A stretch of 64,000 nt of DNA from Candidatus Bathyarchaeota archaeon (GCA_963772455.1 CAVYXJ010000012.1:96001-160000); one strand, 5' to 3'. Positions 7,145 to 59,873 are shown, counted from the stretch's first letter. The notes: a model not told the origin generated them from the letters alone. Numbers and translations are program-made.

Positions 7145-7200
7145 CTTGTTAAGAATCCTTGACTAATTTTAGTCAAGTAACCTGTACGAGAATGCTTTTA
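7145..7200 (+). promoter_or_regulatory. Tandem 9-4-9 palindromic site plus BRE/TATA, copy 1
   Basis: CTTGTTAAG-aatc-CTTGACTAA-tt-TTAGTCAAG-taac-CTGTACGAG-AATGCTTTTA, about 30 bp before the ATG at 7228. Confidence 0.7.
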
Positions 7201-7227
7201 AAACAAACTACTTCACAATAAGTAAAT

Positions 7228-9642
7228 ATGAACTGTGTGGGCAAAACCTTAGCATATATTCTTGTCATTGTCTGCTTGGCATCATTATGCCTTACATTCG
7301 TTGAACCTTCAAAAGCCCAATCCTCCACTAACGATTGGCCAATGTTCCGCCATGACCCAAACCACAGCGGCTACACCTCCAGTAACGATTCAATGAATTA
7401 TGCCAAGCTCTTATGGAATTTCACAACTGGTGGGGGTGTAGTATCTTCTCCTGCAGTGGCAAATGGATTTCTTATCGTAGGCTCCAAAGATTGCTATGTA
7501 TATTGTATAGATGTTTCAAATGGACATTTAGTATGGAAATTTCCAACAGGAAACATAGTGGATTCTTCGCCTGCGATTGTTAATCAAAGAGTCTACATAA
7601 GCTCGCAGGATGGTTGGGTTTATTGCCTAGACTTCATAACGGGAAAGCCTTTGTGGATATCGATGGTTGGGGGATTTGCGCAATCTTCACCAACAGTTGT
7701 GGATGGCAGAGTCTTTGTGGGTTCAGGAAACCCGGAACTATTTTGCTTTAACGCTTCAGATGGCTCCCTGATTTGGAGACATCCAACACCAGATAAAGTT
7801 GAGTCTTCACCTGCAGTTTCAGAAGGCATTGTATACGTTGCTACGAACAACTACCATGTTTACGCTTTCAACGCCTCTACAGGCGGCGAATTATGGCGCA
7901 CTCATACAGGAAGCACCTTCACCTCCCCATGCATAAACAATGGATGTATCTACATTGGTTCATACGACGGCTATATCTGCTGTTTGAATTCTTCCACAGG
8001 CACAAAAATTTGGCAATATCAAACGGACGATACGGTGGCTTCTTCTCCAACTATTGCTTATGGCTACGTTTATGTAGGCTCCCAAGACAACGGAGTTTAT
8101 TGCCTCAACATTACCAGCGGAGAGAAAATATGGAAGTATCCAACGGGATATTGGGTTTGGTCTTCGCCTGCTATTGCTGACGGCAAATTATACGTTGGTT
8201 CTGAGGACTATAATGTTTACTGTTTTGATGCTTTCACCGGGGCAGTAAAATGGAGTTATGCAACGGGGAGTTCTGTGGATTCTTCTCCCGCAATCGTGAA
8301 TAACATGCTCTACTTTGGATCAAACGATCACAATGTATACGCTTTAGCTCTAACCAATTCAACCACAGAAAAAGAACCCTTGCAAACAGCCAATTCTTTA
8401 GCTTGGACTACCGTTGCCTTCAATTTGATTACATGCGCCGTGGCTGCAGCGATTCTGTTTACAATCTTTGTCTTTGCTTATTCAAACAGACAAACCAAAC
8501 AAAACTCTCCACCAATCACTGTTTCTAGCCGAAAGATAAAATGGTTTTCAGCACACTTCGATGCTCTTTGCATTTTGGCGATTCTGGCTTTCTCAACGAT
8601 ATTCTTCATAAATCTTGGCAATGGACCACTTTGGGCTGCTGACGAGCAAACGTACTCGCAGTGGGCATATCACATGGTTAAAAGTGGAGACTACCTTAAC
8701 CCGTGGGCTTTCGGAGACGTTGCACTTTGGATTGGCAAACCTCCGCTTAATATGTGGCTTATGTCCCTTTCCTACCAAATCTTGGGTGTTAGTAACTTTA
8801 GTTCAAGACTTGTAAGCGCCATGTTCGGCAGTTTATCGTTAGTTCTTATCTTCTATCTGGGGAAGAAACTGTATAATGGATATGTTGGTTTATTGTCAGC
8901 GTTTGTTTTAGGCACTTTCACAACTTTTTATATGTTTGCGAGACGGGCAATGACTGATGTGCCTTTGGTTTTCTTTATCATAGCAAGTCTTTACTTTTTA
9001 GTTTTAAGCGAGAAACCCCAGAAATCTAATCGATACTTAGCATTAAGCGGTTTATTTTTTGGTTTAGCCCTAATGACAAAGCAGGTTGGAGCTTTGCTGA
9101 TTCCTATAATTATCCTTGCTTATCTAACTGTAACAAGTAGAAGCATCAGGTTTGTTTTCACTAAACGGTTTGCTCTTTTTTGGGGAGTTGGGCTTCTAAT
9201 TATTTCTCCTTGGTTAACTTATATGGCATCTTCTTTTTCTGCGGAGTTTTGGCAATCGTATATTATGTATAGCGGGTTTAATCGAACATTTAGCCCTCTG
9301 GAAGGTCACCAAGAAGGATACCTATTCTACTTTAGCTACTTAGCTATTAACGAAAAATTGTGGGTATTATTGCTGCCTTTTGCGGTGGGACTTTGCGCTT
9401 TCAAGGCTGTTGTTAAGAAAGCAAAAGCGGACACTCTACTCATTTTATGGATTGCAGTTGTCTTTTTGATTTTCACTTTTGTTCAAACAAAACTTTTTTG
9501 GTATATTCTGCCAGTTTTTCCAGCTTTTGCAATCTCCATAAGTAGTCTGCTTTATCAGTTACTAAATAAAATCCAATATTCTATAAGAAACTCTTCTTCG
9601 TGGGGAAGCGCACACAAAAAACACAAAACAAAAACAGTTTAA
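7228..9642 (+). CDS. Secreted PQQ/BamB-like beta-propeller fused to an ArnT/PMT-family (GT-C) glycosyltransferase
   Basis: Signal peptide, WPMFRHD, repeated SSPA.....VYVGS.D..VYC.....G...W blades; then DE, KPPL, R..SA.FG, TD and A.MTK GT-C motifs with many TM helices. Confidence 0.85.
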   Translation: MNCVGKTLAYILVIVCLASLCLTFVEPSKAQSSTNDWPMFRHDPNHSGYTSSNDSMNYAKLLWNFTTGGGVVSSPAVANGFLIVGSKDCYVYCIDVSNGHLVWKFPTGNIVDSSPAIVNQRVYISSQDGWVYCLDFITGKPLWISMVGGFAQSSPTVVDGRVFVGSGNPELFCFNASDGSLIWRHPTPDKVESSPAVSEGIVYVATNNYHVYAFNASTGGELWRTHTGSTFTSPCINNGCIYIGSYDGYICCLNSSTGTKIWQYQTDDTVASSPTIAYGYVYVGSQDNGVYCLNITSGEKIWKYPTGYWVWSSPAIADGKLYVGSEDYNVYCFDAFTGAVKWSYATGSSVDSSPAIVNNMLYFGSNDHNVYALALTNSTTEKEPLQTANSLAWTTVAFNLITCAVAAAILFTIFVFAYSNRQTKQNSPPITVSSRKIKWFSAHFDALCILAILAFSTIFFINLGNGPLWAADEQTYSQWAYHMVKSGDYLNPWAFGDVALWIGKPPLNMWLMSLSYQILGVSNFSSRLVSAMFGSLSLVLIFYLGKKLYNGYVGLLSAFVLGTFTTFYMFARRAMTDVPLVFFIIASLYFLVLSEKPQKSNRYLALSGLFFGLALMTKQVGALLIPIIILAYLTVTSRSIRFVFTKRFALFWGVGLLIISPWLTYMASSFSAEFWQSYIMYSGFNRTFSPLEGHQEGYLFYFSYLAINEKLWVLLLPFAVGLCAFKAVVKKAKADTLLILWIAVVFLIFTFVQTKLFWYILPVFPAFAISISSLLYQLLNKIQYSIRNSSSWGSAHKKHKTKTV

Positions 9643-9703
9643 CCCATTCAATTGTTATTCTAAAAATTTTTTAAGCAAGTTTATGATTAAGAAGTTGATA
9701 CGT

Positions 9704-9985
9704 ATGCCAATAATTATTAAGATTGGACCCAACATCATCGGAATTTTTTGGGCATTAGTCACCTTATTAGGTGTCATATTAGCAATAAATGGATTCTTTT
9801 ATGCTGTCAGTAGTTTAACGACTTTCGGTGAAATAGCTCCAACCAACACAGCGGTTCTTTCGAATGTAAGCGGTGGGATTGGTATTTTTATTCTCGGATT
9901 AGTTGCGACAGGAATAGGTTATCTTGGAATTCGAGGAAGAATAATAATCACAACAAATGAGAACACAAAACAGACCCTTTCTTAG
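9704..9985 (+). CDS. Small two-TM membrane protein
   Basis: Two hydrophobic segments; TATA-like element upstream. Confidence 0.6.
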   Translation: MPIIIKIGPNIIGIFWALVTLLGVILAINGFFYAVSSLTTFGEIAPTNTAVLSNVSGGIGIFILGLVATGIGYLGIRGRIIITTNENTKQTLS

Positions 9986-10036
9986 TTTGAAATAATCTTT
10001 TAAGTAAGGTCAAAACAAATACAATTTGGTGATTGA

Positions 10037-10246
10037 GTGAGAGTAGAATTGGGTTTGTTGGGTGCTTTTGCTTTTGCGTTTGGCGCAACAATAGTATTTT
10101 TGTTAGGTTTCTGGTTTTTAAAATATTCTAGTGCCCTGAATTCGCCGTTATACCTTTTCGTTTTCTTAGGTTTTCTTTCGCTTGGTTTAGGTCTATGGTT
10201 AATTGCTCTAAGCGTAAAACCTGATACAAAACAGAACCCTTCTTAG
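10037..10246 (+). CDS. Small two-TM membrane protein
   Basis: GGTGA Shine-Dalgarno before GTG; two hydrophobic helices. Confidence 0.65.
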   Translation: MRVELGLLGAFAFAFGATIVFLLGFWFLKYSSALNSPLYLFVFLGFLSLGLGLWLIALSVKPDTKQNPS

Positions 10247-10266
10247 AAATCCTATAAACAATATTC

Positions 10267-10323
10267 TTAGTCAAGAATTCTTAACTGCTCTTAGTCAAGA
10301 GTCTTATACGAGAAGTCTTTTAT
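10267..10323 (+). promoter_or_regulatory. Tandem 9-4-9 palindromic site plus BRE/TATA, copy 2
   Basis: TTAGTCAAG-aatt-CTTAACTGC-tc-TTAGTCAAG-agtc-TTATACGAG-AAGTCTTTTAT before the ATG at 10349. Confidence 0.75.
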
Positions 10324-10348
10324 CTCCAAACCAAACCTAACAATAAGC

Positions 10349-11158
10349 ATGGGATGTATAAACAAGGGTTTCTCTTTACTTCTTGTCGTTATCTTAGCGG
10401 TCTCAAGCCTAATGATGGTTGAATCTGCGTTTGCTCAGTCAATACCTAAACCATCCGTACCAGAATTTACTGTAAAAGTTATTGATCGCTCTTACGATGA
10501 ACCAATAAGTTACTACACCGACCCATATACTGGAAAAACCAAAACTTATCAAGGCTATCACGTAGAGAACAAAACAATTGAAATTAAAATAAAAAACCAA
10601 CAATTCAACAATTATGATAGTGCAAGTGGAAAAACTCTAAGCCTATACTACAATATAAGTGCAAAAGGACACTTTGGCGATGATTGGATGTACTACCCTA
10701 AAAATAATCAAGCTTATTCAGCTTCTGGCTCGCCTTACACAACCCTTACTTTTCTTACTAGGGGGTCTTCAAATGGCGGTGACCTTATACCTGCACCATG
10801 GGGCGGTGATATAGACGTCCAAGTACAAGCTTTGATAGGCTATTATTACACCGAGTTTGTCCCAGACAAATTCTTTGGAAGCTATGTTACAAAGTTTGTT
10901 GGTCAAAAAAGCGAATGGAGTAATATACAAACAATAACCATACCTACTAGCTCTGTTTCTAACTCTACACCAAACCCGACATCATCAACGAATCCAACAA
11001 CAGCTCCAACTTCAACCCCAACTACAACTAACTTAACAGGCAATCCAATTTCTGTACCTTTGAATACATTAATCGTGGTTATTGCAATCTTTCTAGCGAT
11101 TATTGTTGTTTTGTCATTGCTGCTTTTCAGAAAGCATCAAAAAAACCCTCCAAAATAA
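10349..11158 (+). CDS. Secreted, C-terminally anchored surface protein (PKPSVPEFTVK type)
   Basis: Signal peptide, beta-rich domain, P/T/S linker, TM helix and RKH tail. Confidence 0.85.
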   Translation: MGCINKGFSLLLVVILAVSSLMMVESAFAQSIPKPSVPEFTVKVIDRSYDEPISYYTDPYTGKTKTYQGYHVENKTIEIKIKNQQFNNYDSASGKTLSLYYNISAKGHFGDDWMYYPKNNQAYSASGSPYTTLTFLTRGSSNGGDLIPAPWGGDIDVQVQALIGYYYTEFVPDKFFGSYVTKFVGQKSEWSNIQTITIPTSSVSNSTPNPTSSTNPTTAPTSTPTTTNLTGNPISVPLNTLIVVIAIFLAIIVVLSLLLFRKHQKNPPK

Positions 11159-11367
11159 ATCCTATGTTTTAAGAAGAAAGCATAAACTAAATTTGTAATG
11201 GAAACCTCGATAGACTTAACAATATTGCGAATATTCTTTCGCATAACAGCCTTATATTTTGCGAATTCTGTTTCACTAATAGCGTTGATGGCCTTCTCAA
11301 AAACGAATAAAGACCTTACAGTAACATCTCTAAACAACCCTAAAAAAAACATTGAGGTCAATTAAAA

Positions 11368-12318
11368 ATGCAAATAAGATCTTTCATCAAATCTCACCCA
11401 ATATCATTTATGATGATAGCTGCAACAATCGCAGTCGCTATTGCTTTACTTGCCGCACCGGCAGACTCAGCTTCTACAAATCTATGTAGTCCATGCCATC
11501 CAGGTTTGTTATCAACCACCTACAATCAGCAATTAGACATAGTTGAAGGAAACAGCCAAAACCAAATACCTACTAACATTCAAGTAGGCCAAACCCAAAC
11601 CGTCACAGTAGCTATCCAAAACATCAATGACGCTGCCAAGTACAATCAACTAACGAGTGTCGCGCTAACACTAAGTTCACAAAACGGACACTTTTCAGTA
11701 AATACACCAACCTTCAACATTGCCACCCTATCAACTGGCACATCAATAGCAACTTGGCAAATAACCGGAGTTTCAGCAGGACCAGATTCACTCTTAATTT
11801 CTGCATCGGCTTCAAATACTCACAACAACCTAAAGTTCTCAGACAGCTACTCGCCAAATCCATCCATAACTATTGTTTCAGCCCCAACTCCAACGCCAGT
11901 TCCAACCGCACTCCCAACAGCTACACCAACTCCTCAAATAACACCAAGCCCAACCCCAATACCTTCAGCAACTGATTCACCTACCCCAACTCCAACAGCC
12001 TCTTCAACTCAAACCCCAAACGCAACTCCAACTCCCTCAACAACAATGACACCTACACCCAGCCAAAACACAAATCCCACACCTACTCCAACCCCAAAAG
12101 CATCTCAAACAACTAGCTCAACCCCCGACCCCACACCAAAAACTCAGTCTGAATCAGATGACGAAACACAACCAAATAAAGAACAAGTTCCAAACCCTTC
12201 AACCCCAAAATCCCCCAGCCACTCAAAGCCCTGGGGCGATTTCCATCACCGATTCTACTTCTTCAATCATATGCATACATTATTCAGATGGTTTCCACAT
12301 TGGGGAGTTGGCTATTAA
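11368..12318 (+). CDS. Secreted protein with CxxCH heme-c motif, Ig-like domain and long PT linker
   Basis: Signal peptide, CSPCH, beta-rich domain, PT repeats, aromatic/His-rich tail. Confidence 0.75.
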   Translation: MQIRSFIKSHPISFMMIAATIAVAIALLAAPADSASTNLCSPCHPGLLSTTYNQQLDIVEGNSQNQIPTNIQVGQTQTVTVAIQNINDAAKYNQLTSVALTLSSQNGHFSVNTPTFNIATLSTGTSIATWQITGVSAGPDSLLISASASNTHNNLKFSDSYSPNPSITIVSAPTPTPVPTALPTATPTPQITPSPTPIPSATDSPTPTPTASSTQTPNATPTPSTTMTPTPSQNTNPTPTPTPKASQTTSSTPDPTPKTQSESDDETQPNKEQVPNPSTPKSPSHSKPWGDFHHRFYFFNHMHTLFRWFPHWGVGY

Positions 12319-12393
12319 CAACCCTTATTTTCTTTTAGATAAATGAAAAAAAGTTTCTACTTAATAAGAAATGAGAAGGAACTCTGGTTATTA

Positions 12394-12627
12394 TCAATCC
12401 TGTATTACCATAAGAGTCAGGGAGCTATTTACGCCAGCTATGGATTTAATTTGTGATCTAGTTATTTCCTTAATTTGGTCTATTGATCGAGCTTTAATTT
12501 TGATTAAAAGATCGTAAACCCCTAAGAGGGCGTGTGCTTCTTCAACACCATCTACAAGTTTTAGGCTTTCTAATATTTTATCTTGGGTACCTGAATCAGT
12601 ATTTAATAAAACAACTGCAGAAATCAT
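12394..12627 (-). CDS. Stand-alone Lrp/AsnC ligand-binding (RAM) domain protein
   Basis: GVEEAHALLGVYDLLIKI and I.GV..SLTL motifs; no HTH. Confidence 0.85.
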   Translation of the reverse strand: MISAVVLLNTDSGTQDKILESLKLVDGVEEAHALLGVYDLLIKIKARSIDQIKEITRSQIKSIAGVNSSLTLMVIQD

Positions 12628-12739
12628 ATCTTAATCCTCGCTATTTCGAGATTATCTTGAAACGGAATAATTAAGATGTGTTGTTGCGCAGGTGAAACCA
12701 CAAAGCGTTAACTATGCCAAAAAAAAGAAAAGATGTATT

Positions 12740-12913
12740 TTAGAGAGGTTCTGGTGCGCATAGGTTTTCTGCTTTGGCAGCTGTTCGCATGCAACCTTTG
12801 CAGATGTATTTCGCATCTTTAACAAGTGGCTTTATCTTTTCTATGGGTACTTTTTCCTCTACCATTTTGCAGAGGTGTTTTGCATGACCTGGATGAGGTT
12901 GATCTTTCGACAA
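12740..12913 (-). CDS. 57-aa Cys/His-rich metal-binding protein (not in the ORF track)
   Basis: Manual translation from TTG: MSKDQPHPGHAKHLCKMVEEKVPIEKIKPLVKDAKYICKGCMRTAAKAENLCAPEPL; AGGTG SD upstream. Confidence 0.75.
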   Translation of the reverse strand: MSKDQPHPGHAKHLCKMVEEKVPIEKIKPLVKDAKYICKGCMRTAAKAENLCAPEPL

Positions 12914-13043
12914 AATTTACACCTAAACAAATAGAGCAGCAATACTACATATAGAGATGTGATTGCCCAGTCACACCCACAGGAATTTTGTAGGAATCTG
13001 TTTTTTCCTTAGAAGGGAAATCTTTCGAAATGTTATAGGTGAA

Positions 13044-13313
13044 TTACTTTAGAATTAGGTGACCTGTGTGGTTTGATTTAGGCTTGTAAACTATAATTTG
13101 ATTTTGTTCTTCCACTACCGCTAAATCATGTTTCTTTGTAATTCCTTTAATGTATTGCCTGCAATCATTGTCCATAATTGCTTTTATTCTAATTTTGTAG
13201 CCAGTCGATAGCGCATCTTCGGGGATTGGCTCCAATAGAATAAATGAATTTGAATCTAATTTGCATTCAGATAATAATGTCTTAAGGAACGTGCTTGCTT
13301 CTTGTTTGTTCAT
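13044..13313 (-). CDS. Hypothetical protein
   Basis: 89-aa ORF with protein-like composition. Confidence 0.6.
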   Translation of the reverse strand: MNKQEASTFLKTLLSECKLDSNSFILLEPIPEDALSTGYKIRIKAIMDNDCRQYIKGITKKHDLAVVEEQNQIIVYKPKSNHTGHLILK

Positions 13314-13815
13314 TAGAAAACGCTCAAAGTCAATAGTAGCGATAATAACTTAAAGATTTGGGATGTAAACCTGCGCGGAATAAAATTTATGACTTGACAG
13401 ATTAGAACGGACTTCCTTGACCGCAAGGTAAAACACAAAAAATAGAACTATAACTCCCAACCTACATCCCATCCTGCATCCAGAAATTAAAGAAATAATC
13501 TGCAACAAAAGAAAAGAAGGCTGGAATGTGTATTCGCTGGATACCACAAGAATTGTTAGAGTCCTATGTTCTTTTGACTGTAATAACAATATTTTCAGCG
13601 TCATCTTTTCTTGTAGAAGGTTTGCGATTAAGAAAAAAGATGAAGAACTAAACCTTTTTTGGTTAAACATAGTCTGATAAGCCAAGTAATTTCATTAATT
13701 CCTCTTCTGTAGCTGTCTGAAGAAAAGTATCTATGTTTTTTTGTCTAACGTGTTAGCGCTTGAGTATAACTTAAAACAATGTTGTCTTAAAATGAAGCAA
13801 CAAGCTTATGTAAAA

Positions 13816-14340
13816 TTAAATTATCTTAAATCCATGCAGAACATGTATCAAAATGATAAGATAAAACACCATAACCAAACTCGCGTGAATAAATTTTACA
13901 GTCTTTAAACTAATCGTTCTATCGCCTATTTTTCTTTGAGATGCAAATCGTTGAGTAAAACCAAAGGCTATTTGCAGGCTCATAGCGCCAAACATTGCAA
14001 GACCAGTGCCTAAATCTGGAAGGGTGGACCTTGATATTTGAGAGGAAAAATGATAAACTATTAAGGTAAAGAAGACTAGATTGCCAATAATGTGGAAACG
14101 TATAATTTTCGTCCAAGAAGCAGGATAAGAACGTTTCATCACAGTAAACAGAGGAGTCGCTACTGCAATTCCAATTGTTCCAATAATTGAGAGCATATGC
14201 GAAAAACGCATGTTTAAAATGACCATGTTGACTATAAGAGTATGATTATAAATTATAGCTGACAAAGCGATTGCAACTATTATAATTGATAAAGCACTCA
14301 AAAAATCGATATGCTTACCAATATTCATAAAACTCTCCAA
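13816..14340 (-). CDS. Multi-TM His-containing membrane protein, cytochrome b-like
   Basis: About 5 TM helices with His in the helices (FSH, RFH, YH, IH, HVLH). Confidence 0.6.
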   Translation of the reverse strand: MESFMNIGKHIDFLSALSIIIVAIALSAIIYNHTLIVNMVILNMRFSHMLSIIGTIGIAVATPLFTVMKRSYPASWTKIIRFHIIGNLVFFTLIVYHFSSQISRSTLPDLGTGLAMFGAMSLQIAFGFTQRFASQRKIGDRTISLKTVKFIHASLVMVFYLIILIHVLHGFKII

Positions 14341-14513
14341 ATATTGATAACCTGACTAGCTATTTAAAACAATGTTATAATTGCTTGTGCCAGTCGTTTA
14401 CCAATGAGCCATGCAGCCCCAACATGATCAATTTGTTTGACAATTACGGAAAAAATTCATTAGAAACTCTATGTTAACTTAATGTTTAGAAGCTATTTTC
14501 AGAAGGTTAGAAA

Positions 14514-15254: not shown

Positions 15255-15298
15255 CATTTCAATATTTTCTGATGTTTTTACTACGTAGAGGAATTTCC

Positions 15299-49993: not shown

Positions 49994-50385
49994 TATTTCA
50001 CCTTTTTAGTTTTAATTGAAAATGAATGGGATAAAAGCATTTTCGTGTGTATTACATATGTAGTGTGGCATTTTTTTGTTATAGTAGTTTTGTTTTTTGT
50101 TTGTCTTCGTTGTATTGATTGGGTTGTTGGTTGTTAGTTGCGTTAATTTATTTGTTTGTTTTTGGGTCTTGTTGTTTTTTGGGTGTTGTTTATCGGTAGA
50201 ATCTTTTTTATGGGCAAGCTGGGCTGCTGCTCTCTTCATACATGAAAATTGAATCCTGAATCCTAATATTAAGGTCTTTCTTGCGACATTTCTTCTATCA
50301 AGGCTTCAACTTTGCTGAAGAAAGCTAAATGTTAACAGAAAAAGTTATATCTTCTAAGAATTAGACATTAAAAGGGATTTTTTAA

Positions 50386-50970: not shown

Positions 50971-51080
50971 AACAAAACTCGAAAACAAAACAAAGCCTCA
51001 CTTTTTTTACTCCAATTGTCATCTGAATCTAACCCTTATTTTATTGATTAAAAAAGCAGTAAGAAACTTTAAAGCTCTGG

Positions 51081-51428
51081 CTACAATTCGGGCAAGTATA
51101 AGTGTTTACTTTTCCTGTAAATAAGGATAAATCCAATCAGAATAAGCAAAGCTGGCACTATGTAGAAAGCTGTGTAGGAAAGATACCAACCTATCCATGG
51201 CCAAACACTGTAGGTTGCCCCTAACAAATCCAGTTCCCTGATTGAATACAGGGTTAAAGTGGGCACCGATAACCATCCAATTGTAAGAAATATAAAGCCT
51301 ATACTGATTGCCAAGTACCCATTCTCTTTTGTTCTCCGAAAATGTAGAATCAAAACACCGCAAATCAGTACAAATATAATGACAGGAAGGAAATAACGGA
51401 ATAAATCAAGCAGTTGAAGTTCCCACAT
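51081..51428 (-). CDS. Three-TM membrane protein
   Basis: Hydrophobic helices. Confidence 0.6.
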   Translation of the reverse strand: MWELQLLDLFRYFLPVIIFVLICGVLILHFRRTKENGYLAISIGFIFLTIGWLSVPTLTLYSIRELDLLGATYSVWPWIGWYLSYTAFYIVPALLILIGFILIYRKSKHLYLPEL

Positions 51429-51634
51429 CGGCTTTCACTAATTTGCATTTCAAATGTTCACATATAATAATTTTTTAACAGTTGTTTCCTTGCCTTGTTT
51501 ATAGTGGTTGCAAGACAGAGCTCTTGCTTGCGAGGGCGACTTTTAGGGAGGGGTACTCGCTGCCTGGTTTTTTGTTGTCTTTATTGATTTACTTGTTTTT
51601 TCTTTGTTGTTTTCTTTTCGTTATTCTGTTTTAA

Positions 51635-51733
51635 GTGTTTTGGCATGGATTTCTTGCAGTTTTTGCAGCTGGAGGCCTTATTGCCGGTTTAGCATTAACG
51701 TACTTTGCTGTAAAAAAGCTAAAACGACGGTAG
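51635..51733 (+). CDS. 32-aa single-TM peptide or gene remnant
   Basis: GTG start: MFWHGFLAVFAAGGLIAGLALTYFAVKKLKRR. Confidence 0.4.
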   Translation: MFWHGFLAVFAAGGLIAGLALTYFAVKKLKRR

Positions 51734-51976
51734 GTTTTGTTCTGTATTTTTGTACTCTAAAATTTTGTTAAATTGAGAGACATTCGTTTTGGGCTAAAAA
51801 GACAACTATTATAATGCAATTAATAGCGATAGCAAAACTTCCATAGCTCATATACTCAGGTCACCTATGCATTCCAATGGTTATCTCTTAAGTTAAGTTT
51901 AGCTATTCTATGATTAGAAAAATGAAAAAGTTCAAAAAGTTAAAGATAAATTGGGGTTTGTTGATGTCTTTTACTT

Positions 51977-52330
51977 TCATTGTTCCTGAAGTGGTTTTTT
52001 GTTCAATGTTTTTTGCATAGCCTCGGCAACGATGAATAAGCCAACTAGCACGATCACTGTTGGAATGAATGGCATTGCAAATCCAACTATTCCGGCACCG
52101 CTTAATGATAGGGCAAGTAGGCCTATGAAGAGACTGAATTTGCTTACGCTGATTCCTGTGGTCCATCTGGCAAAGTTTAGAACTATCAATATCAAGCCAG
52201 CTCCAAGTGCAATGTAAATTCCAGTGTCAATTTGGTAGTAAGTGGATGTTATCCATCCAGCGCCAAGTAGGACAATGAATACTCCCCATGCTATTGGATC
52301 AAAGATTTTGTTTTTTGCTGATTTTTCCAT
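51977..52330 (-). CDS. Four-TM membrane protein
   Basis: GAGGTGA SD; WG...L.G and G.GLILI.LN..R pattern. Confidence 0.75.
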   Translation of the reverse strand: MEKSAKNKIFDPIAWGVFIVLLGAGWITSTYYQIDTGIYIALGAGLILIVLNFARWTTGISVSKFSLFIGLLALSLSGAGIVGFAMPFIPTVIVLVGLFIVAEAMQKTLNKKPLQEQ

Positions 52331-52372
52331 TCTTTTTCACCTCCTCATCATTATATTTTTTTTTAATTTTTA

Positions 52373-52618
52373 TCAAGTGCATCCGCAGGAGTTCTTGGAT
52401 TCTCCGTCGGCGTCAATTTCTGCTATGCCTGAGGCAAATCTGTCTATTTGAGTTATGGCGTTTTTTCGAACGACTTTTGCAACTCCGATTGCTTCTGCGA
52501 TTTCTTTTTTGTCGGCTCCGCTGTCGAGGGCTTTTTTGATTATGGTTCTAAGGCATGGTTGGCAGTTTGCGACTACGGCTGCTCCGACTGCTATTAGCAA
52601 TTTTGTTTTGGTTTCCAT
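52373..52618 (-). CDS. Carboxymuconolactone decarboxylase/AhpD-like protein
   Basis: LIAVGAAV.ANC.PCL....KA...GA...EI.EAI. Confidence 0.88.
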   Translation of the reverse strand: METKTKLLIAVGAAVVANCQPCLRTIIKKALDSGADKKEIAEAIGVAKVVRKNAITQIDRFASGIAEIDADGESKNSCGCT

Positions 52619-52716
52619 CTTATTCCTCTGTTAGTTTTCTTCTACTTCCTTTTATGGTGGAGAAAACTATATAACAATTCTCTGACAACTCCTTACCAGA
52701 AGAGAGGAGAAAAACT

Positions 52717-53472
52717 ATGACTATCTCGAAAACCACTTCCAGAGACAGAATGATAGCGCAATTAAAGGAATTGGAACTTTCAACGTACGAAGCCACAGTT
52801 TACGCTGCATTAATCACTCACCCGTCAATGACTGCGAGCGCACTCTGCAAAGAAACAGGCATCCCAGACACAAAAATTTACTACGCGTTAGAGGGACTGA
52901 GCGAAAAAGGAATGCTTACAGTCCGAATAGGCAATCCAAAGATCTACCGTCCTGTACCTCCGAAAGAGGCAATTGCTAACCTTAAACAACGGTTAACAGA
53001 GAGGCTAAATGAGAAACTAAAAGAAGCAGATGTCCTAGTCGACATGATATCGCCCATATTTGAAAGCGCAGAAAAACCCGATGAGTTAGAAGTTGCATAC
53101 ATCATCCGGGGACAAAACAACCTCATAAACCGTATGAAAGCATTAATTGAAACAGCACATAGAGAAGTCACTTTGTTTGTTTCCTATCCAACCCTTTTCC
53201 AAGACCTTAAAATGTCACTTCAGCAAGCACAAGAAAAGCGCAGAATCAAACTTAACATAGCTATGACTGAAGAAATGTTAAAGACTGAAGACTTCAAGGG
53301 TTTAGGTGATGTGCGTCAGCTTTGCTGTCCTGTTACGCTTCTTATCTCAGATCTGAAGACTTTGATAACGGTCTCTGACTGGGTTGAGGAATCTGCTATG
53401 CTTTCGCAAGACCAGAACCTGATTCGAGTAGCAAGAGACTACTATGAAAATTCGATGTGCTATGCTCCTTAG
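52717..53472 (+). CDS. TrmB family transcription regulator
   Basis: LS.YEA.VY.AL, GIP..KIY..L..L..KG, P..Y.P..P. Confidence 0.9.
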   Translation: MTISKTTSRDRMIAQLKELELSTYEATVYAALITHPSMTASALCKETGIPDTKIYYALEGLSEKGMLTVRIGNPKIYRPVPPKEAIANLKQRLTERLNEKLKEADVLVDMISPIFESAEKPDELEVAYIIRGQNNLINRMKALIETAHREVTLFVSYPTLFQDLKMSLQQAQEKRRIKLNIAMTEEMLKTEDFKGLGDVRQLCCPVTLLISDLKTLITVSDWVEESAMLSQDQNLIRVARDYYENSMCYAP

Positions 53473-53564
53473 AAAACGATTGTGAAGCATGTTTCTTTTC
53501 AGTTGCTGTTAATGCTATATTGCATTAATTTTATATATGTAGAGTTACAAACTTAGCAAAACGT

Positions 53565-54020
53565 ATGTTGTCAAATAAAGAATTGGTTCAAAAAGCAGTC
53601 AATGACTTCCAAAGTGGATTCAATTGTACTCAAAGCATACTCCTAACGTTATATGGAAATATGCTGCCAGAGGGAAAAAGCGATCTGATTCCAAAAATAG
53701 CCAGTGGGTTTGGGGGCGGCATGGGACTCTGTGGATCGGTTTGCGGGTCGTTAACTGGAACTATTATGGCGATTGGAATCAAATATGGTTCTAACGAAAA
53801 AGGTGAGGAAAAAAACATGCCAGCTTATGCCAAGGCTAACGCGCTTTATCGGTTGTTTGAAAAGCAACATGGCACTGTTCTTTGTCGTGAGCTAATCAAA
53901 TATGACCTTACCAAGCCTGAAGAGTTGGAAAAGGCAAGACAAGAAGGCGTTTTTAATAGAGTATGCACAAATTTGGTCAGAACTGCTGTGGAAAATTATC
54001 TTGAATTGGAAAATAAATAG
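53565..54020 (+). CDS. C_GCAxxG_C_C family redox protein
   Basis: FNCTQS, GFGGG....SVCG.LTG, CREL and C-terminal Cys. Confidence 0.88.
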   Translation: MLSNKELVQKAVNDFQSGFNCTQSILLTLYGNMLPEGKSDLIPKIASGFGGGMGLCGSVCGSLTGTIMAIGIKYGSNEKGEEKNMPAYAKANALYRLFEKQHGTVLCRELIKYDLTKPEELEKARQEGVFNRVCTNLVRTAVENYLELENK

Positions 54021-54119
54021 CTTTGAGATTTGCATTATAATAGAGGGGCTGGGAGTTAATTTTTAATGTGCGCATATTATTAATATTGTAACAGCCTAAC
54101 CTTACTGGTGTGAGCACCT

Positions 54120-54449
54120 TTGCTCTTTGGACATAAAAACAGATTCCAAGTAGACTTTGGCGATTTACAAAACGAAAAAGAAGGCTTATCAAACTTTTTG
54201 CAATCAAACCTCAAAGTATCCGTTGCCTCAGATGAAAACAAATTGATTGTGAATTCAGAAAAGTTGTCTGTGCTGGAATTGCAGCAAGCAGTGGCAAAAT
54301 ATGTTTATCGCCATAACTTGAGCAGGACTCACTGGGTCTCTGTGCAAGATAAAACCGTTAAAATCAATAGGTTCAAAGGCGCTAAGAAAAAAGAAAAACC
54401 CAAGAAAAGCACACCTCATCAAAACGTTACACAAAGCTGGGGACTATAA
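54120..54449 (+). CDS. Hypothetical protein, possible ribosomal eL22-like fold
   Basis: F.VD, L.NFL, ..V.SE..S...L....KY.....L pattern; basic tail. Confidence 0.5.
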   Translation: MLFGHKNRFQVDFGDLQNEKEGLSNFLQSNLKVSVASDENKLIVNSEKLSVLELQQAVAKYVYRHNLSRTHWVSVQDKTVKINRFKGAKKKEKPKKSTPHQNVTQSWGL

Positions 54450-54473
54450 AATGCATCGTTAAGTAAGCAAAGA

Positions 54474-55025
54474 TTATTTGTGGTTTGTCGGTGGCTTTTC
54501 GCTTAATTCAAGGAACTTTTCCATTGAGTATTCTACGATTTCCCGAGCCACTTGAGCATCTTTCCATTCTCTAACCTTAACCCATTTATGGGGCTCAAGT
54601 CGTTTGTAAGTTTCAAAGAATTCTTGAATCTCTATTAATCGGTGTTTGTTGACATCGGTTATGTCATGGTAGCCTTCGAATCGAACATCGTTAACCAGTA
54701 CGGATAGAATTTTGGCGTCTAGCCCTTCTTCATCTTCGATTATTAGGGCACCTATAACTCGGACTTTAACAATGCAACCGACTGTAAGAGGTGCGTAGCT
54801 GAGTAGCATAATATCTAAGGGGTCCTCATCATCAGACCATGTCTGTGGAACAAACCCGTACTCAACTGGAAACACCACTGATGAAGGAATAATTCTATCC
54901 AGTATGAAGGCTTCCCATTTTATGCCGTATTCGTATTTATCTCGCGAGCCACTTGCAACTTCAATAACCATATTTAAAAGCCCAGGTGGATTATCTCCCG
55001 CTGGGATATCTCTCCAAAAATTCAT
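54474..55025 (-). CDS. ppa: Family I inorganic pyrophosphatase
   Basis: KYEY, LDR, YGFVPQT..DD.DPLD, D.KI, FFETYK.LE. Confidence 0.95.
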   Translation of the reverse strand: MNFWRDIPAGDNPPGLLNMVIEVASGSRDKYEYGIKWEAFILDRIIPSSVVFPVEYGFVPQTWSDDEDPLDIMLLSYAPLTVGCIVKVRVIGALIIEDEEGLDAKILSVLVNDVRFEGYHDITDVNKHRLIEIQEFFETYKRLEPHKWVKVREWKDAQVAREIVEYSMEKFLELSEKPPTNHK

Positions 55026-55296
55026 AACTTGTCAACCTTTTATTAGGCAACGCTGTCAACGATTTAAATTTTCGCCGATTTTCTTTAACTTTAATGGTGA
55101 TCTCAAAGAATAAAGGAAGTTAAGATTACTAAAAATATTTTTCAATTAGACAATGCCGTCAATTAATCGTGAGATAAGAGAACTCTTGAATAGAGGGTGA
55201 TGGGGATGTTGTTGGATTAACTGTTGGTTGGTTGGATTGAATTTTAATCCTTCACCTGTCCACCTTAATCTTATATGCTAAGCAGTCAATAATAAA

Positions 55297-55848
55297 TTGG
55301 CGACAAAATTGCTTAAATCAAAAGCAATAAGCAAGAAGCACATTATTGCCGTTATCTCAATTGCAATTGTTCTTGCAACAATCTTATCTGTTTTTGCAAT
55401 TGAACAACTTGCAAGCCAAGGTCAAGTTACAAATCAAAACAACATCTTACAACCAGATGCATTAAGTCCTTTAAATGAGACTCCTGCAGCTACCGAGGAA
55501 CCTACACCAACTCCGACACCCTCGGCTATTCCGACGCCAACGCCTATACCCATTCCAGTTGATTTCACAATTAACGATTCCTCTCACATACTCACTGTCA
55601 ATATTGACTTGAACGATGGAATGAATAGGGAAGAAGCTATAGTGGTAGCCCAGCAACTGTTTTCTTACGCACATTCACATTCTACTTATGAGCTTAAATC
55701 AGCAGAAGTTAATGAAGCAGGGGTTTGGAGTGTTAGTCTTCCATGGGGAATAGTTTGGGCTGATGGCACTCAAGAGAGCCACAGTCACTTCTTTATCGCC
55801 ACAATAGACCCAACGACTCTAACCGTCGAATACGCCACATGCGAATGA
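55297..55848 (+). CDS. Membrane-anchored protein with PT linker and PepSY-like domain
   Basis: TM helix, PT repeats, REEAI..A, W.V, IDP.T. Confidence 0.7.
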   Translation: MATKLLKSKAISKKHIIAVISIAIVLATILSVFAIEQLASQGQVTNQNNILQPDALSPLNETPAATEEPTPTPTPSAIPTPTPIPIPVDFTINDSSHILTVNIDLNDGMNREEAIVVAQQLFSYAHSHSTYELKSAEVNEAGVWSVSLPWGIVWADGTQESHSHFFIATIDPTTLTVEYATCE

Positions 55849-55916
55849 GATTAAACGTACCCTTCACCAAGTAAATTAGCCTTCACTTGTCCACTAAATT
55901 ATTTTTCACAAAAAAA

Positions 55917-56066
55917 TTATTCTGTTTTATTTTTAGATTCCAATTTATTATTCGAAGGTACTTTGTTTTCTGGTATTAGAGCATCTGGATTCTTAGCTTT
56001 TCTTTTCAAATAAGCCGCATACTGTTCAGGCGTAAAGTCTTTCCTAAACTCATGGTCTTTACCCAA
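55917..56066 (-). CDS. 49-aa hypothetical protein (not in the ORF track)
   Basis: AGGTGA SD, TTG start: MGKDHEFRKDFTPEQYAAYLKRKAKNPDALIPENK... Confidence 0.5.
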   Translation of the reverse strand: MGKDHEFRKDFTPEQYAAYLKRKAKNPDALIPENKVPSNNKLESKNKTE

Positions 56067-56256
56067 ATTTTTTCACCTATTTCTATTCGCTAATTTTTCA
56101 GGGAGATGATGGATTAAATTTTAATTTAGCCTGCGAAGTTACGGGTTTACGAAATTTCAGTTTAACCCTAACTAATTAAGAATAAGTTGTAAGAACATAA
56201 ATGACCTTCGGGATTCCAGCCCCATTTGTGAGATTCACCAAGGTAATGTTATTTGC

Positions 56257-59200
56257 CTAAGAAACGATTTGATAATTTTCTTTTCCATTCTTGTTAAGTT
56301 TAGGAATAGACATTACAAATTTTACTCCTTTGCCTGGTTCTCCCTCTTCAGTTATGTTCCAACCGTAGATATCTATCATTTTTTTGGTCAGGAATAATCC
56401 AAAGCCCGTGCTGCCACCAGTGCTAAATCCCTCAGAGAAAAGCTTCAACTTATTCTCCGCTGAGATGCCTACACCGTCATCTTCATAAGTCAACATCAAG
56501 TTGCCCTGGTCAGTTTTTTTGTAGTGTACTTTTATTGTGGTGGTTTTTTGTCCATATTTTCTTGTGTTATCAATAAAATTGTAGAACATTTGCCTCAGAA
56601 AAGAATCAGCCAACACTATTAATCCATGGCATTCATTTTTTATCTTTGGACATGAACCCGAGAAGAGCGTGGCTGCTTCGTTTAGCTTTGCCTCAACATT
56701 CATGTAGGATAATTCTTCTGCTCCTAGTTGTTCGTACATTTTTGCGAAATCAAAGATTCTAACAGTTTCCTTAACGGCTTGCTCCATCTTGTTAAGTCCC
56801 TCAACAACATCTGCTTGGTCGAGATGCTTTTTCTTTAGCATATAGGCATATCCTGTAATTGTTGAAAGTTTATTGCGAACATCATGTCTAGTTAAACTGC
56901 CAACGACGCTCAACTTTTCGTTAACCAAAACCAACTGATCCATTGTCTGGTCCAATTTTTCTTCAGCTTTTTTGCGGTCAGTGACATCTTGAATGGTTGT
57001 TCGCAGAAAACTCTTTGTCCCAATCTTAAATTTTGATACATTCAAAATAACGTCTACAACAATGTTGTTTTTGTCTTTAAAACGAGTAAAGAATTCAGAG
57101 ACAATACCGTCTCGTTTGAGGGCTTCAAGCAGCGTTTTTCTATCTTGAGGGTTTTCATATAGATTAACAGAAGAAGTCTTGTTCAACTCTTCAAAAGAGT
57201 AGCCAGTAAGGGTTTGCATAGCCCTGTTCGCATCAACTATGGATCCTTCTAAGGTTGTTATGGCAACAGGGAGGGGCGCTTGTTCAAAGAGCGATCGATA
57301 ACGCTCTTCACTCTCCTGCAATTCCAGTTTAGTTTTCTTCTGTTCAGTAATATCTGTATTGTAACCGCTCCAAAGAATGCTGCCGTCTTCTAATCTTTCT
57401 GGAGTAGACTGCCCCCACATCCAACGTATTTCTTGACCTGGAAGTTGTACACGATATTCACACCGCCAAACAGTCATGTTTGCTGCAGAATACTCAATGG
57501 AACGAACAACTAGGTCTAAATCTTCTGAGACTATTGCTTTGGCAATTGGGGAAAAATCGTTTTGAACATCTTGTGGAGAACAACCAAAAATGTGGTTTAT
57601 TCCATCAGATGTTAATGGAACACAGTATGTTCCGTTTGGTCGTTTCAAAAATTGAAAAAGCATTCCTGGAGTTTGAGAGGCAAGTTTTGTAAATCGAAAG
57701 TCTTTTTCTCGTAACGCATCTTCATTTTTCTTACGTTCTGAGACGTCTTGAACCATTGAAAGGACACCAATTACTGTGCCGTCTTCTTTTTTGAGTGGAG
57801 TGTTTGACCATTCGCATAAGATGGTCCGGCCGTTTTTAGTTAAATTTTCGTTAGCACTATTTGCAGTTACGTCCCCTTTGATTAATCTACTCCAAATCCC
57901 GTCAACTTGGGGTTGGGCTTGTTTTGGTACAATCAAGTCGTAGGGATGTTTTCCGACTGCTTCTTGTTGCGTGAAACCAAATATTCTCTCGGCTGAAGGA
58001 TTCCATGTTTTAACGCGAAACTCACTGTCCCAAACAATTAATCCAACAGGCATCCGATCAATTTGCAATTGGAGATATTCTTGGAGCTTGCTGACTTGGT
58101 CTTTATTTTGTCTGCAGGATTCTGTTGGTTTCTTTGTCTCTGTAATACTTCTTGAGATATGGGTTGCTTGAATTATTTTGCCTTCAACGTTTCTAATTGG
58201 GTACACCGAAACTTCAACTAATAATTCATTGTTATTTTTGTCAAAGTGTTTGTGTTCAACCTTGACTGGTTTACCGGTTTCTAGCATTTCATGAACAGGG
58301 CAAATATCATTCGGAGGTAGACAAGGAACGGATTTATGATGCGTCATTGCGTAGCATGTTTTCCCAGTCAATTCTACTTTACTAAAGCCTGTTTGTTTCA
58401 ATGCCGCAACATTGGCATCGACTATCCTGAAATCATTAACATCAATTACAAAAAGCACCTCACCTACCGAGTTAATTACGCTCTCACTAAACTCCTTCGA
58501 AAACTTCAAATCATCTTCGGCTTTTTTGCGTTCAGTTACATCTCTGACGAGAGCAATAACCAATTTTTCTTTATCAAAAGATATAGTGCTCAAAGTTACC
58601 TCTATTGGAAATCTGCTTTTGTCCTTACGTATTTGGGTACTCTGCAGATTGATAGTGTTCCCTGCAAGCACTTTAGACCATATGTCACCCACAAGTTTTT
58701 GATCTTCTGCCCTAACGGATATGTCTTTAATACTTCTTGCGAGCAGCTCTTCTCTTGTGTACTGTAAATTTTTGCATGCTTGCTGATTTACATCTAATAT
58801 TTTGCCTTTTTCATCGTGGATAAAAATTGCTTCGGCTGCCTGATTCATAAGCGTAAAATAACGTTTTTCACTCGCCTCTAAGGCTGATTTTGCTTTTGTT
58901 TTTTCTGTGATCAAGTTAATACCGTGTACGAGTTCTCCATAGACGGTTTCGGGTGAGCCTTGCTTGTGGAAGTAACCCTCTGCGCCCAGATTGAGCGCAG
59001 TTACAGCTACATCTTCTCTGCCTTTGCCAGTAAACAAAATAAATGGAACCATGTTTTTGCGTTTTCTAAGTTCCCGTAGAAAATCTAATCCGTTCTTCAT
59101 GGGCATATCATAATCAGAAACTACCAAATCATAGTGCCCATCTGCTAATTTGCCAAGACCCTCATCTACACAGCTAGCCTGATCGATCTCCAAGCTACCG

Positions 59201-59364
59201 TTCAAATCCAGAAGCATTAACTTTGTTATCTCTTGGATCGATGGGTCATCGTCAACATGTAATAATCTAATAATGCTTTTTTTGTTTGAAGCAGTTAACT
59301 CAGGTACTTCTACAACTATTTCATTCTGGGTGAGAGTTTGTATTAACAATGCCCCGCAACTCAA
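56257..59364 (-). CDS. REC plus five-PAS histidine kinase, paralog of 1124..2666
   Basis: LLHVDDD, SDYDMP, five PAS/PAC units, RHDVRN, EGFSTGGSTGFGL. Confidence 0.93.
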   Translation of the reverse strand: MSCGALLIQTLTQNEIVVEVPELTASNKKSIIRLLHVDDDPSIQEITKLMLLDLNGSLEIDQASCVDEGLGKLADGHYDLVVSDYDMPMKNGLDFLRELRKRKNMVPFILFTGKGREDVAVTALNLGAEGYFHKQGSPETVYGELVHGINLITEKTKAKSALEASEKRYFTLMNQAAEAIFIHDEKGKILDVNQQACKNLQYTREELLARSIKDISVRAEDQKLVGDIWSKVLAGNTINLQSTQIRKDKSRFPIEVTLSTISFDKEKLVIALVRDVTERKKAEDDLKFSKEFSESVINSVGEVLFVIDVNDFRIVDANVAALKQTGFSKVELTGKTCYAMTHHKSVPCLPPNDICPVHEMLETGKPVKVEHKHFDKNNNELLVEVSVYPIRNVEGKIIQATHISRSITETKKPTESCRQNKDQVSKLQEYLQLQIDRMPVGLIVWDSEFRVKTWNPSAERIFGFTQQEAVGKHPYDLIVPKQAQPQVDGIWSRLIKGDVTANSANENLTKNGRTILCEWSNTPLKKEDGTVIGVLSMVQDVSERKKNEDALREKDFRFTKLASQTPGMLFQFLKRPNGTYCVPLTSDGINHIFGCSPQDVQNDFSPIAKAIVSEDLDLVVRSIEYSAANMTVWRCEYRVQLPGQEIRWMWGQSTPERLEDGSILWSGYNTDITEQKKTKLELQESEERYRSLFEQAPLPVAITTLEGSIVDANRAMQTLTGYSFEELNKTSSVNLYENPQDRKTLLEALKRDGIVSEFFTRFKDKNNIVVDVILNVSKFKIGTKSFLRTTIQDVTDRKKAEEKLDQTMDQLVLVNEKLSVVGSLTRHDVRNKLSTITGYAYMLKKKHLDQADVVEGLNKMEQAVKETVRIFDFAKMYEQLGAEELSYMNVEAKLNEAATLFSGSCPKIKNECHGLIVLADSFLRQMFYNFIDNTRKYGQKTTTIKVHYKKTDQGNLMLTYEDDGVGISAENKLKLFSEGFSTGGSTGFGLFLTKKMIDIYGWNITEEGEPGKGVKFVMSIPKLNKNGKENYQIVS

Positions 59365-59817
59365 ACAAATGTTGTAATTAATAATAAATCAATTATGAAT
59401 CCAAAATACTGAGCATTATATGCTAAAAATATAATGATGTGAAAAGGGATAGTCTTGATGAATATCACTACCTCTGATGCATCACAACTATTGCAGTGTA
59501 CCTGTCCCTCGAGAGAGTCGGATAATTTACCTATTCCCCCAAGTGGGACTTTGGTTTTAATATATTTCTCCACGGAAGTAAGGTTTAATTTCATTTAGTT
59601 TACCGAAGAAGAATGGGCTTCGGTAGATTAACAATGACTTCAGAATCACTCTCTGCACCTTTTAGTTTTCTAAGAAAATAAACCCGTCTTTTTGCTGGTT
59701 GAATTTTAATCCACCACCACCACTTCAACGTGAGGTAGCAGTTAGAACAAAGGAGGTATAAGCGTTCATACCTACATTGTTTAGCCCCAAACACGACTTA
59801 GACAAAAGGCATAGAGG

Positions 59818-59873
59818 TTAGTCAAGAAACTTTGTCCAGCTTAGATGAGGAATATGTACAAGAAGCCTTTTAT
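59818..59873 (+). promoter_or_regulatory. Tandem 9-4-9 site plus BRE/TATA, copy 4 (more degenerate)
   Basis: TTAGTCAAG-aaac-TTTGTCCAG-c-TTAGATGAG-gaat-ATGTACAAG-AAGCCTTTTAT before the ATG at 59898. Confidence 0.65.

Follow-up and report, generated by a model that had tools for sequence, protein, structure and literature searches.

What do four pairs of short palindromes, each set before a TATA-like box and a gene for a predicted surface protein, do in an uncultured archaeon? They lie in a 64,000-nt stretch (hereafter the window) of the 2.45-Mb genome of a Candidatus Bathyarchaeota archaeon (CAVYXJ010000012.1:96001-160000; this genome is called G000 below, and C-numbers denote contigs). The source names attached to homologues agree with a placement in Candidatus Bathyarchaeia. 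Bathyarchaeia are abundant uncultured archaea of sediments, and to our knowledge essentially nothing is known of their gene regulation. An earlier, sequence-only reading of the window had offered two explanations, a dedicated surface-protein regulon or portable promoter-carrying cassettes moved by a recombinase encoded elsewhere, and knew of no description of either in Bathyarchaeia. Our search of the full-text literature (articles without their supplementary files) likewise turned up no description of the motif or of such a regulon. Here we argue that the palindromes are very probably paired operators of a transcription regulator, which would control about thirty surface-protein promoters as one regulon. 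It is the regulon explanation that the fixed register of the sites, their helical phasing, the genes behind them, their conservation and the co-occurrence of a candidate regulator support.

Paired palindromes in a fixed register with the TATA box

The four pairs were found where the sequence-only reading had placed them (7145-7190, 10267-10312, 43432-43486 on the minus strand and 59818-59862), and we refer to the members of each pair as the distal and proximal putative operators. Promoter A (plus strand) has its distal palindrome at 7145-7166, with 3 of 18 positions mismatched, and its proximal palindrome at 7169-7190 (module score 39.6), the right arm of which (..TGTACGAG) merges into a predicted TFB-recognition element (BRE); the TATA box CTTTTAA follows at 7195-7201, and its C at 7195 lies 33 nt from the ATG at 7228. 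In promoter B (plus strand) the palindrome search placed the distal site at 10267-10288, and the proximal site at 10291-10312 (module score 43.2) precedes a TATA box CTTTTAT at 10317-10323, with 32 nt from the C at 10317 to the ATG at 10349. Promoter C is on the minus strand: its distal palindrome (43465-43486) is 33 nt, start to start, from the proximal one (43432-43453; module score 47.8), and the C at 43427 of its TATA box CTTTTAT (43421-43427) is 50 nt from a TTG start at 43377. Promoter D (plus strand) is the least regular, with a distal palindrome at 59818-59839 carrying 4 mismatches and a degenerate proximal operator at 59841-59862 (module score 23.9); its TATA box CTTTTAT (59867-59873) has its C at 59867, 31 nt from the ATG at 59898. 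The C of the TATA box sits 26 nt past the first T of the proximal palindrome in A, B and D, and promoter C keeps the same register. That a CTTTTA(T/A) box stands behind each pair, with the ATG 31-33 nt from its C on the plus strand, was thus correctly observed in the earlier reading. Its count of four sites, all of them real, missed a fifth, decayed palindrome at 42373-42394 on the minus strand (score 34.5), which has no TATA box, holds the TAG stop codon of gene C (42391-43377) and probably remains from the promoter of the following gene in a tandem array. The bare 9-mer half-site is not enriched in the window (23 matches at up to one mismatch versus 22.5 expected); its exact copies number five, all within three of the four promoters.

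The ideal site is a 22-bp palindrome, TTAGTCAAG-N4-CTTGACTAA, with a 9-4-9 layout, ending 4 nt before the TATA box CTTTTAT. In the count matrix the consensus of the proximal site reads TTAGTCAAG-N4-YTTKWACGA and is followed by RAA-NN-CTTTTAT, so that the right arm departs from the ideal CTTGACTAA in the direction of ACGARAA. An archaeal BRE is positioned immediately upstream of the TATA box, and from this promoter geometry we infer that the ACGARAA part of the proximal right arm is the BRE. The 4-nt spacer is variable and was seen in either orientation (AAAC or GTTT), as would be expected for a symmetric dimer, and the linker between the two sites varies as well.

Scanning the genome with a 35-nt position weight matrix (PWM) of the module gave 33 matches at 30 bits or more versus 0, 0 and 0 in three dinucleotide-simulated genomes, a count that is partly circular because the matrix was trained on G000 itself. 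The palindrome with up to 3 of 18 mismatches occurs at 39 sites, nearly all intergenic, versus 1, 1 and 1 in the simulations, and a fixed IUPAC pattern matched 27 times versus 0 for the reversed pattern. The genome scan that the sequence-only reading had proposed thus puts the module far above background, and what recurs in many promoters is a dyad-symmetric site at a fixed position relative to BRE and TATA box, as in an operator. The best-scoring module of the genome (49.9 bits, C16:5882-5913) is followed by about 600 nt without a convincing open reading frame (ORF); what it drives may be a non-coding RNA or a gene that has decayed. At C12:174579 and C23:11569, in near-duplicate regions, the variant palindrome TTAATCAAG-N4-CTTGATTAA is found 60 nt upstream of a gene for a small membrane protein.

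A second, distal palindrome accompanies 24 of the 32 modules of G000 and 66 of 100 modules from ten relatives, versus none of 132 when the upstream sequence was shuffled, and distal palindromes are nearer to the ideal consensus than proximal ones. The start-to-start spacings of the two sites fall into classes of 23-25 bp (55 cases), 32-36 bp (29) and 43-46 bp (6). These differ by one helical turn and keep both sites on the same face of the DNA, a signature of what would be cooperative protein binding on that face. Downstream, the start codon, for the most part 26-34 nt beyond the TATA box, lies 21-50 nt past its C in 22 of the 27 module genes of G000, with a mode of 31-32 nt, and 17-54 nt from it in 85 of the 99 modules of relatives that have an ORF. 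The centre of an archaeal TATA box lies about 26-27 nt upstream of the transcription start site (TSS); combined with the start-codon distances, this geometry suggests that most module transcripts are leaderless, with a TSS that is probably at or just before the start codon.

The module heads unrelated genes for surface proteins

If the module defines a regulon, its genes should share a function and not only a promoter. All four window genes encode proteins with a signal peptide. Gene A (7228-9642, plus strand, 804 aa) combines a PQQ-like beta-propeller with a PMT_2 glycosyltransferase domain; gene B (10349-11158, plus strand, 269 aa) has a PKPSVPEF-family domain without Pfam match, a C-terminal transmembrane (TM) helix and an RKH tail; gene C (42391-43377, minus strand, 328 aa) has Ig-like repeats, a C-terminal TM helix and an HKKH tail; and gene D (59898-60758, plus strand, 286 aa) has a Big_7 Ig-like domain, a C-terminal TM helix and an RRHRK tail. 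The translations bear out the alike N-termini (MNCVGKTL, MGCINKGF and MGSLGKNY, each before a hydrophobic core) and the RKH/RRH/KKH anchors that the sequence-only reading had described, and its remark that the passenger domains differ extends to the whole genome, where module genes carry unrelated Pfam domains or none. These include the PQQ propeller with PMT_2 glycosyltransferase, NosD beta-helix, Kelch propeller, Ig-like, lectin-like and collagen-like domains, and several module-gene families have no Pfam match at all. Among the other module genes are those for a nucleotide-sugar epimerase, an alkaline-phosphatase-type phosphodiesterase, a protein with three winged helix-turn-helix (wHTH) domains and a 56-aa Zn-ribbon protein, to which relatives add a DegT aminotransferase, a MacB/FtsX permease and a Fer4_5 membrane protein.

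The enrichment before signal-peptide genes, a check proposed in the earlier reading, is strong: a crude measure of hydropathy assigns a hydrophobic, signal-like N-terminus to 18 of 27 module genes versus 448 of 2461 ORFs of the genome (Fisher p = 3e-8). A C-terminal anchor with a basic tail is predicted for 12 of the 27 versus 236 of the 2461 (p = 2e-6), and 85 of 99 ORFs downstream of modules in relatives reach at least 9 hydrophobic residues in 12. The sites thus head functionally related, non-homologous genes, as is expected of a regulon. No module stands ahead of any of the 43 other window ORFs scanned, which include housekeeping genes for PolB, a Rad51-like ATPase, succinate dehydrogenase, fumarase, a RIO kinase and others; the earlier impression that the motif avoids housekeeping genes is in line with this.

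In two of the regulon proteins, ..TPTVPEFP precedes a C-terminal TM helix that is followed by basic residues. The class of archaeosortase substrates (such as PEF-CTERM proteins) is defined by a C-terminal tripartite signal, and the genome has two exosortase/archaeosortase-family genes; a scan of 20 regulon proteins with NCBIfam gave no match to a CTERM sorting-signal model.

The module is conserved in two families of the order

Of 24 other genomes of the genus, 19 contain the module pattern, as does one genome from another family; the reversed control gave 0 matches throughout. We extended the count to 151 genomes of the order, allowing up to 2 mismatches, and found the palindrome in 42. The conservation covers the genus of the window, four more genera of its family and one genus of another family: carriers of multiple sites are nine of the 13 g1 genomes, g22, g23, g28, one g21 genome and all 19 genomes of g16, which belongs to a different family. 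One g41 genome with 2 palindromes is the exception outside these genera, and the rest of the order has single sites at chance level only. Among 150 genomes of the class from outside the order there were six single sites and no genome with two, which equals the rate of the reversed control.

Sites are also kept upstream of orthologous genes in different species, as regulon membership predicts. The triple-wHTH gene carries the module in G000, G011, G001 and G032, the Zn-ribbon gene in G000, G007 and G005, and the Fer4_5 operon in G000 and G040; the phosphodiesterase, PKPSVPEF and NosD-like families are module-headed in other genomes too. The half-site reads TTAGTCAAG in g1 and TTKGTCAAG in g16; its outer bases thus differ, but both genera have the same core, and this speaks for a DNA-binding domain common to the two.

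Cassette-like junctions, probably without site-specific recombination

Could the palindromes instead be recombination sites of a Xer-type (pdif-like) or integron-like system that moves promoter-carrying gene cassettes? Like Xer/dif, pdif and integron attC sites, they are short imperfect inverted repeats that recur beside unrelated genes; module genes share conserved 5' and 3' ends around unrelated middles, and palindromes are at times found at a gene's 3' end. The sequence-only reading had parsed the site as an 11-6-11 substrate of Xer recombinases. Conservation, however, covers 9-4-9 and not a 28-bp 11-6-11 site, and the column ahead of the left arm is unconserved (counts 5/16/15/10). The sites are locked to TATA box and start codon, the proximal right arm is bent toward the BRE consensus, and the two sites of a promoter are helically phased. 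They also belong to 5' ends only, and not to both ends as in a cassette: each 3' copy examined turned out to belong to the gene that follows, either as its distal operator or as what is left of one after decay, and where genes form tandem arrays a stop codon can even fall inside the distal operator of the gene behind it.

In the window, the module genes do sit in two regions that are missing at the syntenic place in the closest genome, G001 (PolB 85% identical), as moving cassettes would have it. Variable region 1 (6966-14500, 7.5 kb) holds module genes A and B and follows tRNA-Gly(GCC) at 6889-6965. Variable region 2 (42154-61616, 19.5 kb), absent at the syntenic place on G001:C1, is bounded by the outward-facing module genes C and D. 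In this detailed comparison with one relative, the breaks fall at ~6080-6280, 14500, 42154-42391 and 60758-61617, and no promoter palindrome coincides with any of them, unlike what recombination at the motif would predict. No integrase is encoded among the 43 window ORFs and 23 ORFs of three arrays that were scanned, and the genome's full-length tyrosine recombinases amount to one, on contig C6. A weak integrase-like match in the C13 array (C13:80960-81061, 20.6 bits) is below cut-off. Unlike integron cassettes, which are promoterless, each gene has its own BRE and TATA box, there is no adjacent integrase in the window or the arrays, and in several genomes the module is conserved ahead of orthologues of one regulator gene. 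On this evidence we consider cassettes moved by a Xer-type or integron-like recombinase to be extremely improbable.

Several observations on these regions stand on their own. The integrase-like fragment lies within the largest surface-gene array, among small ORFs without Pfam matches. The tRNA-Gly(GCC) gene ends 180 bp before promoter A; on G001:C1 the tRNA is ~400 bp from the nitroreductase orthologue, whereas in the window the 7.5 kb with module genes A and B come between the two, and 6966-14500 looks like a variable island adjoining a tRNA gene. The 19.5-kb region contains bestrophin-like, LemA/TPM, ECF-S, TrmB, pyrophosphatase and PAS-rich hybrid histidine kinase genes; some of its parts have matches of 82-91% identity on other contigs of G001/G011.

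The cassette-like look of the module genes arises because their junction blocks evolve in concert. A junction block of ~45 nt comprises the end of the membrane anchor and the distal operator, while the adjoining TM-coding DNA has diverged. In the window, the conserved tail block at 42395-42441 (minus strand), which encodes ..GLLVYHKKH.., is 86-97% identical at the DNA level to at least 10 other loci. A second type of C-terminal tail (..R.H.K..SQNKPNV), encoded at 11120-11240 and 60749-60830, is followed by a conserved 3' block of ~55 nt that is common to loci on C13, C5, C11 and C6. The tail block is alike among paralogues, yet it is not conserved at the DNA level in G001, which indicates concerted evolution. 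This pattern points to gene conversion or unequal crossing-over among paralogues, and not to site-specific recombination, as what shaped the junction blocks.

Concerted evolution raises a further question, namely whether there is a dedicated factor at all. Tandem duplication and gene conversion could have spread a strong promoter together with a paralogous family, the copies looking conserved simply because they are young; the 86-97% identity of junction blocks and the many module copies in tandem arrays (C13 75-91 kb, C16, C24) are what this would produce. It would not produce modules ahead of genes without detectable mutual homology, half-sites and TATA boxes that are conserved while spacer (in both orientations) and inter-site linker vary, or a palindrome kept across two families with its spacing still in helical phase. 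We regard copying without a factor as very unlikely, and return to a regulon with a factor of its own.

A predicted membrane-anchored ArsR-type protein is the candidate regulator

Which protein would bind the operators? We considered five regulator candidates. The one we lean towards, as rather probably the cognate regulator, is a protein of 433 aa whose gene, present in one copy, lies beyond the window at C4:11187-12485, in G000 directly upstream of a module gene. Among the 151 order genomes its full-length orthologues (E at most 1e-70) are confined to g1, g21, g22, g23, g28 and g16. At least two palindromes and an orthologue are found together in 32 genomes, at least two palindromes without one in 2, an orthologue with 0-1 palindromes in 9 and neither in 108, a table that is suggestive and not a probability, and whose significance is overstated because the genomes are phylogenetically clustered, with about two independent clades. 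In a draw of 201 genomes of the class, all 16 genomes with at least two sites carry the candidate and none of the 178 genomes without it has two or more sites; it is absent from all 150 class genomes outside the order. The sole g16 genome that lacks a full-length candidate, G109, has the fewest sites within g16. Palindromes stand immediately upstream of the candidate gene itself in 4 of 21 genomes, from four genera, and in the g28 case they do so in the canonical TATA register.

The N-terminal winged helix of the candidate is of ArsR type, with Pfam models above their cut-offs (HTH_20, 37.2 bits, cut-off 27; HTH_5, 31.6 bits, cut-off 22), which fits the ArsR/SmtB family; the winged helix is invariant among orthologues, and its closest solved structure in a PDB profile search is 1y0u (E = 1.4e-5). 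Each of the 21 orthologues contains a single hydrophobic segment (KD19 2.3-3.0) near residues 100-125, with K/R ahead of it, so that by hydropathy a DNA-binding domain and a membrane anchor share one polypeptide. The positive-inside rule, applied to this hydropathy profile, would put the wHTH domain in the cytoplasm and the ~300-aa C-terminal domain outside the cell. That domain gave no match in Pfam or PDB, the PDB profile matching only the N-terminal wHTH. A classical ArsR protein is a soluble homodimeric repressor with metal-sensing sites; the candidate instead has a TM helix and the 300-aa C-terminal domain. In g16, a palindrome-driven gene of G040 (L168:2007-2684) encodes a 225-aa protein that is a distant paralogue of the candidate's C-terminal domain (24% identity over 206 aa), and the putative sensor domain thus also exists as a regulated stand-alone protein.

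The regulon could also be real with a different factor, in which case the membrane protein would co-occur as part of the same envelope system and the triple-wHTH protein, or another factor, would bind the sites. The triple-wHTH protein (C10:75486-76424, minus strand, 312 aa) carries four invariant cysteines near its N-terminus, its three wHTH domains lie in tandem and a long helix forms its C-terminus, an arrangement that its AlphaFold2 (AF2) model reproduces (pLDDT 82); a Foldseek search with this model gave only generic MarR/HxlR/PadR-type wHTH matches, with E above 0.01. Its gene is the most conserved module target in the genus, with a 5' UTR (untranslated region) of ~65 nt, and has a canonical two-site module in G000 that is shared by the orthologues named above; G006 and G017, which are poor in palindromes, each retain one site, and it lies ~200 nt upstream of this gene. 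As a universal factor it was rejected: it was not found, even by profile, in four g16 genomes with 17-27 palindromes each, nor in G005, which has 9 modules and carries the 433-aa candidate, and it is present in the motif-free genera g2, g6, g7, g8 and g15. The half-site core that g1 and g16 share also argues for one DNA-binding domain common to both. We judge this explanation unlikely, though well worth keeping in mind, and consider that the triple-wHTH protein may be a second-tier regulator, possibly redox- or metal-sensing.

The remaining candidates fared as follows. The RING-like Zn-ribbon protein of 56-60 aa, a recurrent module target of the genus that is sometimes present in two copies (C10:419492-419662; G007; G005), was not found in g16. 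A 97-aa Sso10a-like HTH_45 protein encoded near palindromes in G000 and G040 occurs in 145 of the 151 genomes with many paralogues and is not specific. A wHTH + DUF4443 protein (C10:216268-216894) is encoded near modules in G000 and G040. The genes downstream of the G040 palindromes, and those at weaker palindrome-like sites elsewhere in G000, yielded no regulator.

A proposed mechanism and its relation to known systems

On the reading we prefer, dimers of the regulator would bind both phased operators cooperatively, with operator centres ~45 and 69 (or 79, or 90) bp upstream of the predicted TSS, and the bound regulator would contact TFB/TBP at the adjoining BRE/TATA and help or gate their recruitment. 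As a membrane-tethered one-component system it would couple envelope conditions to the transcription of envelope proteins, acting either from the membrane or once released by proteolysis. Junction blocks kept homogeneous (anchor tail, operators, TATA box and signal peptide) would let homologous recombination shuffle the passenger domains. Taken together, an ArsR-type tethered regulator would read the envelope, activate about thirty mostly leaderless surface genes through BRE-fused phased operators and drive a triple-wHTH cascade, while the junction blocks allow recombinase-free shuffling of passengers; this composite picture we put forward tentatively.

Several points weigh against the reading we prefer. 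No palindrome stands upstream of the candidate gene in any of the 13 g1 genomes. The nine candidate carriers with 0-1 consensus palindromes comprise four g1 and five g21 genomes (core palindromes in these five site-poor g21 genomes number 5, 4, 1, 1 and 0), and G109 and G108, with 2 sites each, lack a full-length candidate. A membrane-tethered factor must reach about thirty dispersed loci or be proteolytically released. Finally, the overlap of the proximal site with the BRE, and a BRE/TATA that seems strong in its own right, fit repression as well as activation.

On the direction of regulation, two papers describe archaeal regulators that bind upstream of BRE/TATA and activate, namely TrmBL1/Tgr, Ptr2, TFB-RF1 and Tar; the site of Tar is TGGACA-N8-TGTCCA, and Ptr2 promoters can have two sites (PMC4158304, PMC6737238). 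ArnR/ArnR1 of Sulfolobus acidocaldarius are described as membrane-bound one-component activators of archaellum and type-IV-pili genes, and the ArnR target promoter has two inverted-repeat boxes, TCGAC-N5-GTCGA, both needed for binding (PMC6396743). Because the archaeal upstream-of-BRE/TATA factors and ArnR/ArnR1 are activators, we favour, by a modest preference, activation over repression here. The putative operators resemble the sites of Ptr2, TrmBL1/Tgr, TFB-RF1 and Tar in being dyad-symmetric and placed upstream of or beside BRE/TATA, a position that predicts activation through TBP/TFB recruitment. Those four regulators are soluble and have metabolic regulons, whereas the module described here keeps a rigid register, merges its proximal site with the BRE and has predicted targets that form a surface proteome.

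The candidate is like ArnR in being archaeal and predicted to be membrane-anchored, with an N-terminal HTH, two inverted-repeat boxes and surface targets. The domains differ: in ArnR a HAMP/sensor domain in the cytoplasm is combined with two TM helices at the C-terminus, whereas the candidate has an ArsR-type wHTH, one TM segment directly behind it and a large domain predicted to lie outside. The targets differ too, about thirty promoters of diverse secreted or anchored proteins in place of the pili targets of ArnR, with a proximal site that is rigidly placed and overlaps the BRE.

The bacterial regulators ToxR and CadC have a cytoplasmic winged helix with an OmpR-type DNA-binding domain, a single TM segment and an extracytoplasmic sensor, and control envelope and surface genes. 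The candidate's predicted topology is like theirs; its DNA-binding domain is of the HTH_20/HTH_5 ArsR type and not the OmpR type, and it would act on archaeal BRE/TATA elements and the TFB/TBP machinery. We suggest that it works like ArnR or ToxR, a likeness of architecture, and do not claim membership of either family.

Other features of the window

Two family-B DNA polymerase genes lie in the window, one in the block 2808-6080 and one at 62908-63999. The former block, of PolB, a small ORF and a Rad51-like ATPase, is present three times in G001, in one case interrupted by a stop codon, and may be a mobile element. A class-II fumarase is split over two ORFs (29263-30012 and 30107-30649), with ~30 profile positions missing between them; the split may be a frameshift, a pseudogene or an assembly error. 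A short repeat at 42236-42311 with a purine-rich inverted repeat of ~15 bp recurs at at least 15 loci on many contigs and may be a terminator or an element like a miniature inverted-repeat transposable element (MITE).

Implications

The module is a directly testable cis-element, and it defines a surface proteome that would be regulated as a unit. It can also serve as a marker for annotating secreted and surface proteins and leaderless starts in these genomes. The soluble N-terminal domain of the candidate can be assayed without cultivation; if the candidate is right, it would represent a second archaeal architecture of membrane-bound transcription factor beside ArnR. If the proposed mechanism holds, envelope sensing in these Bathyarchaeia would be tied to the expression of the envelope genes themselves.

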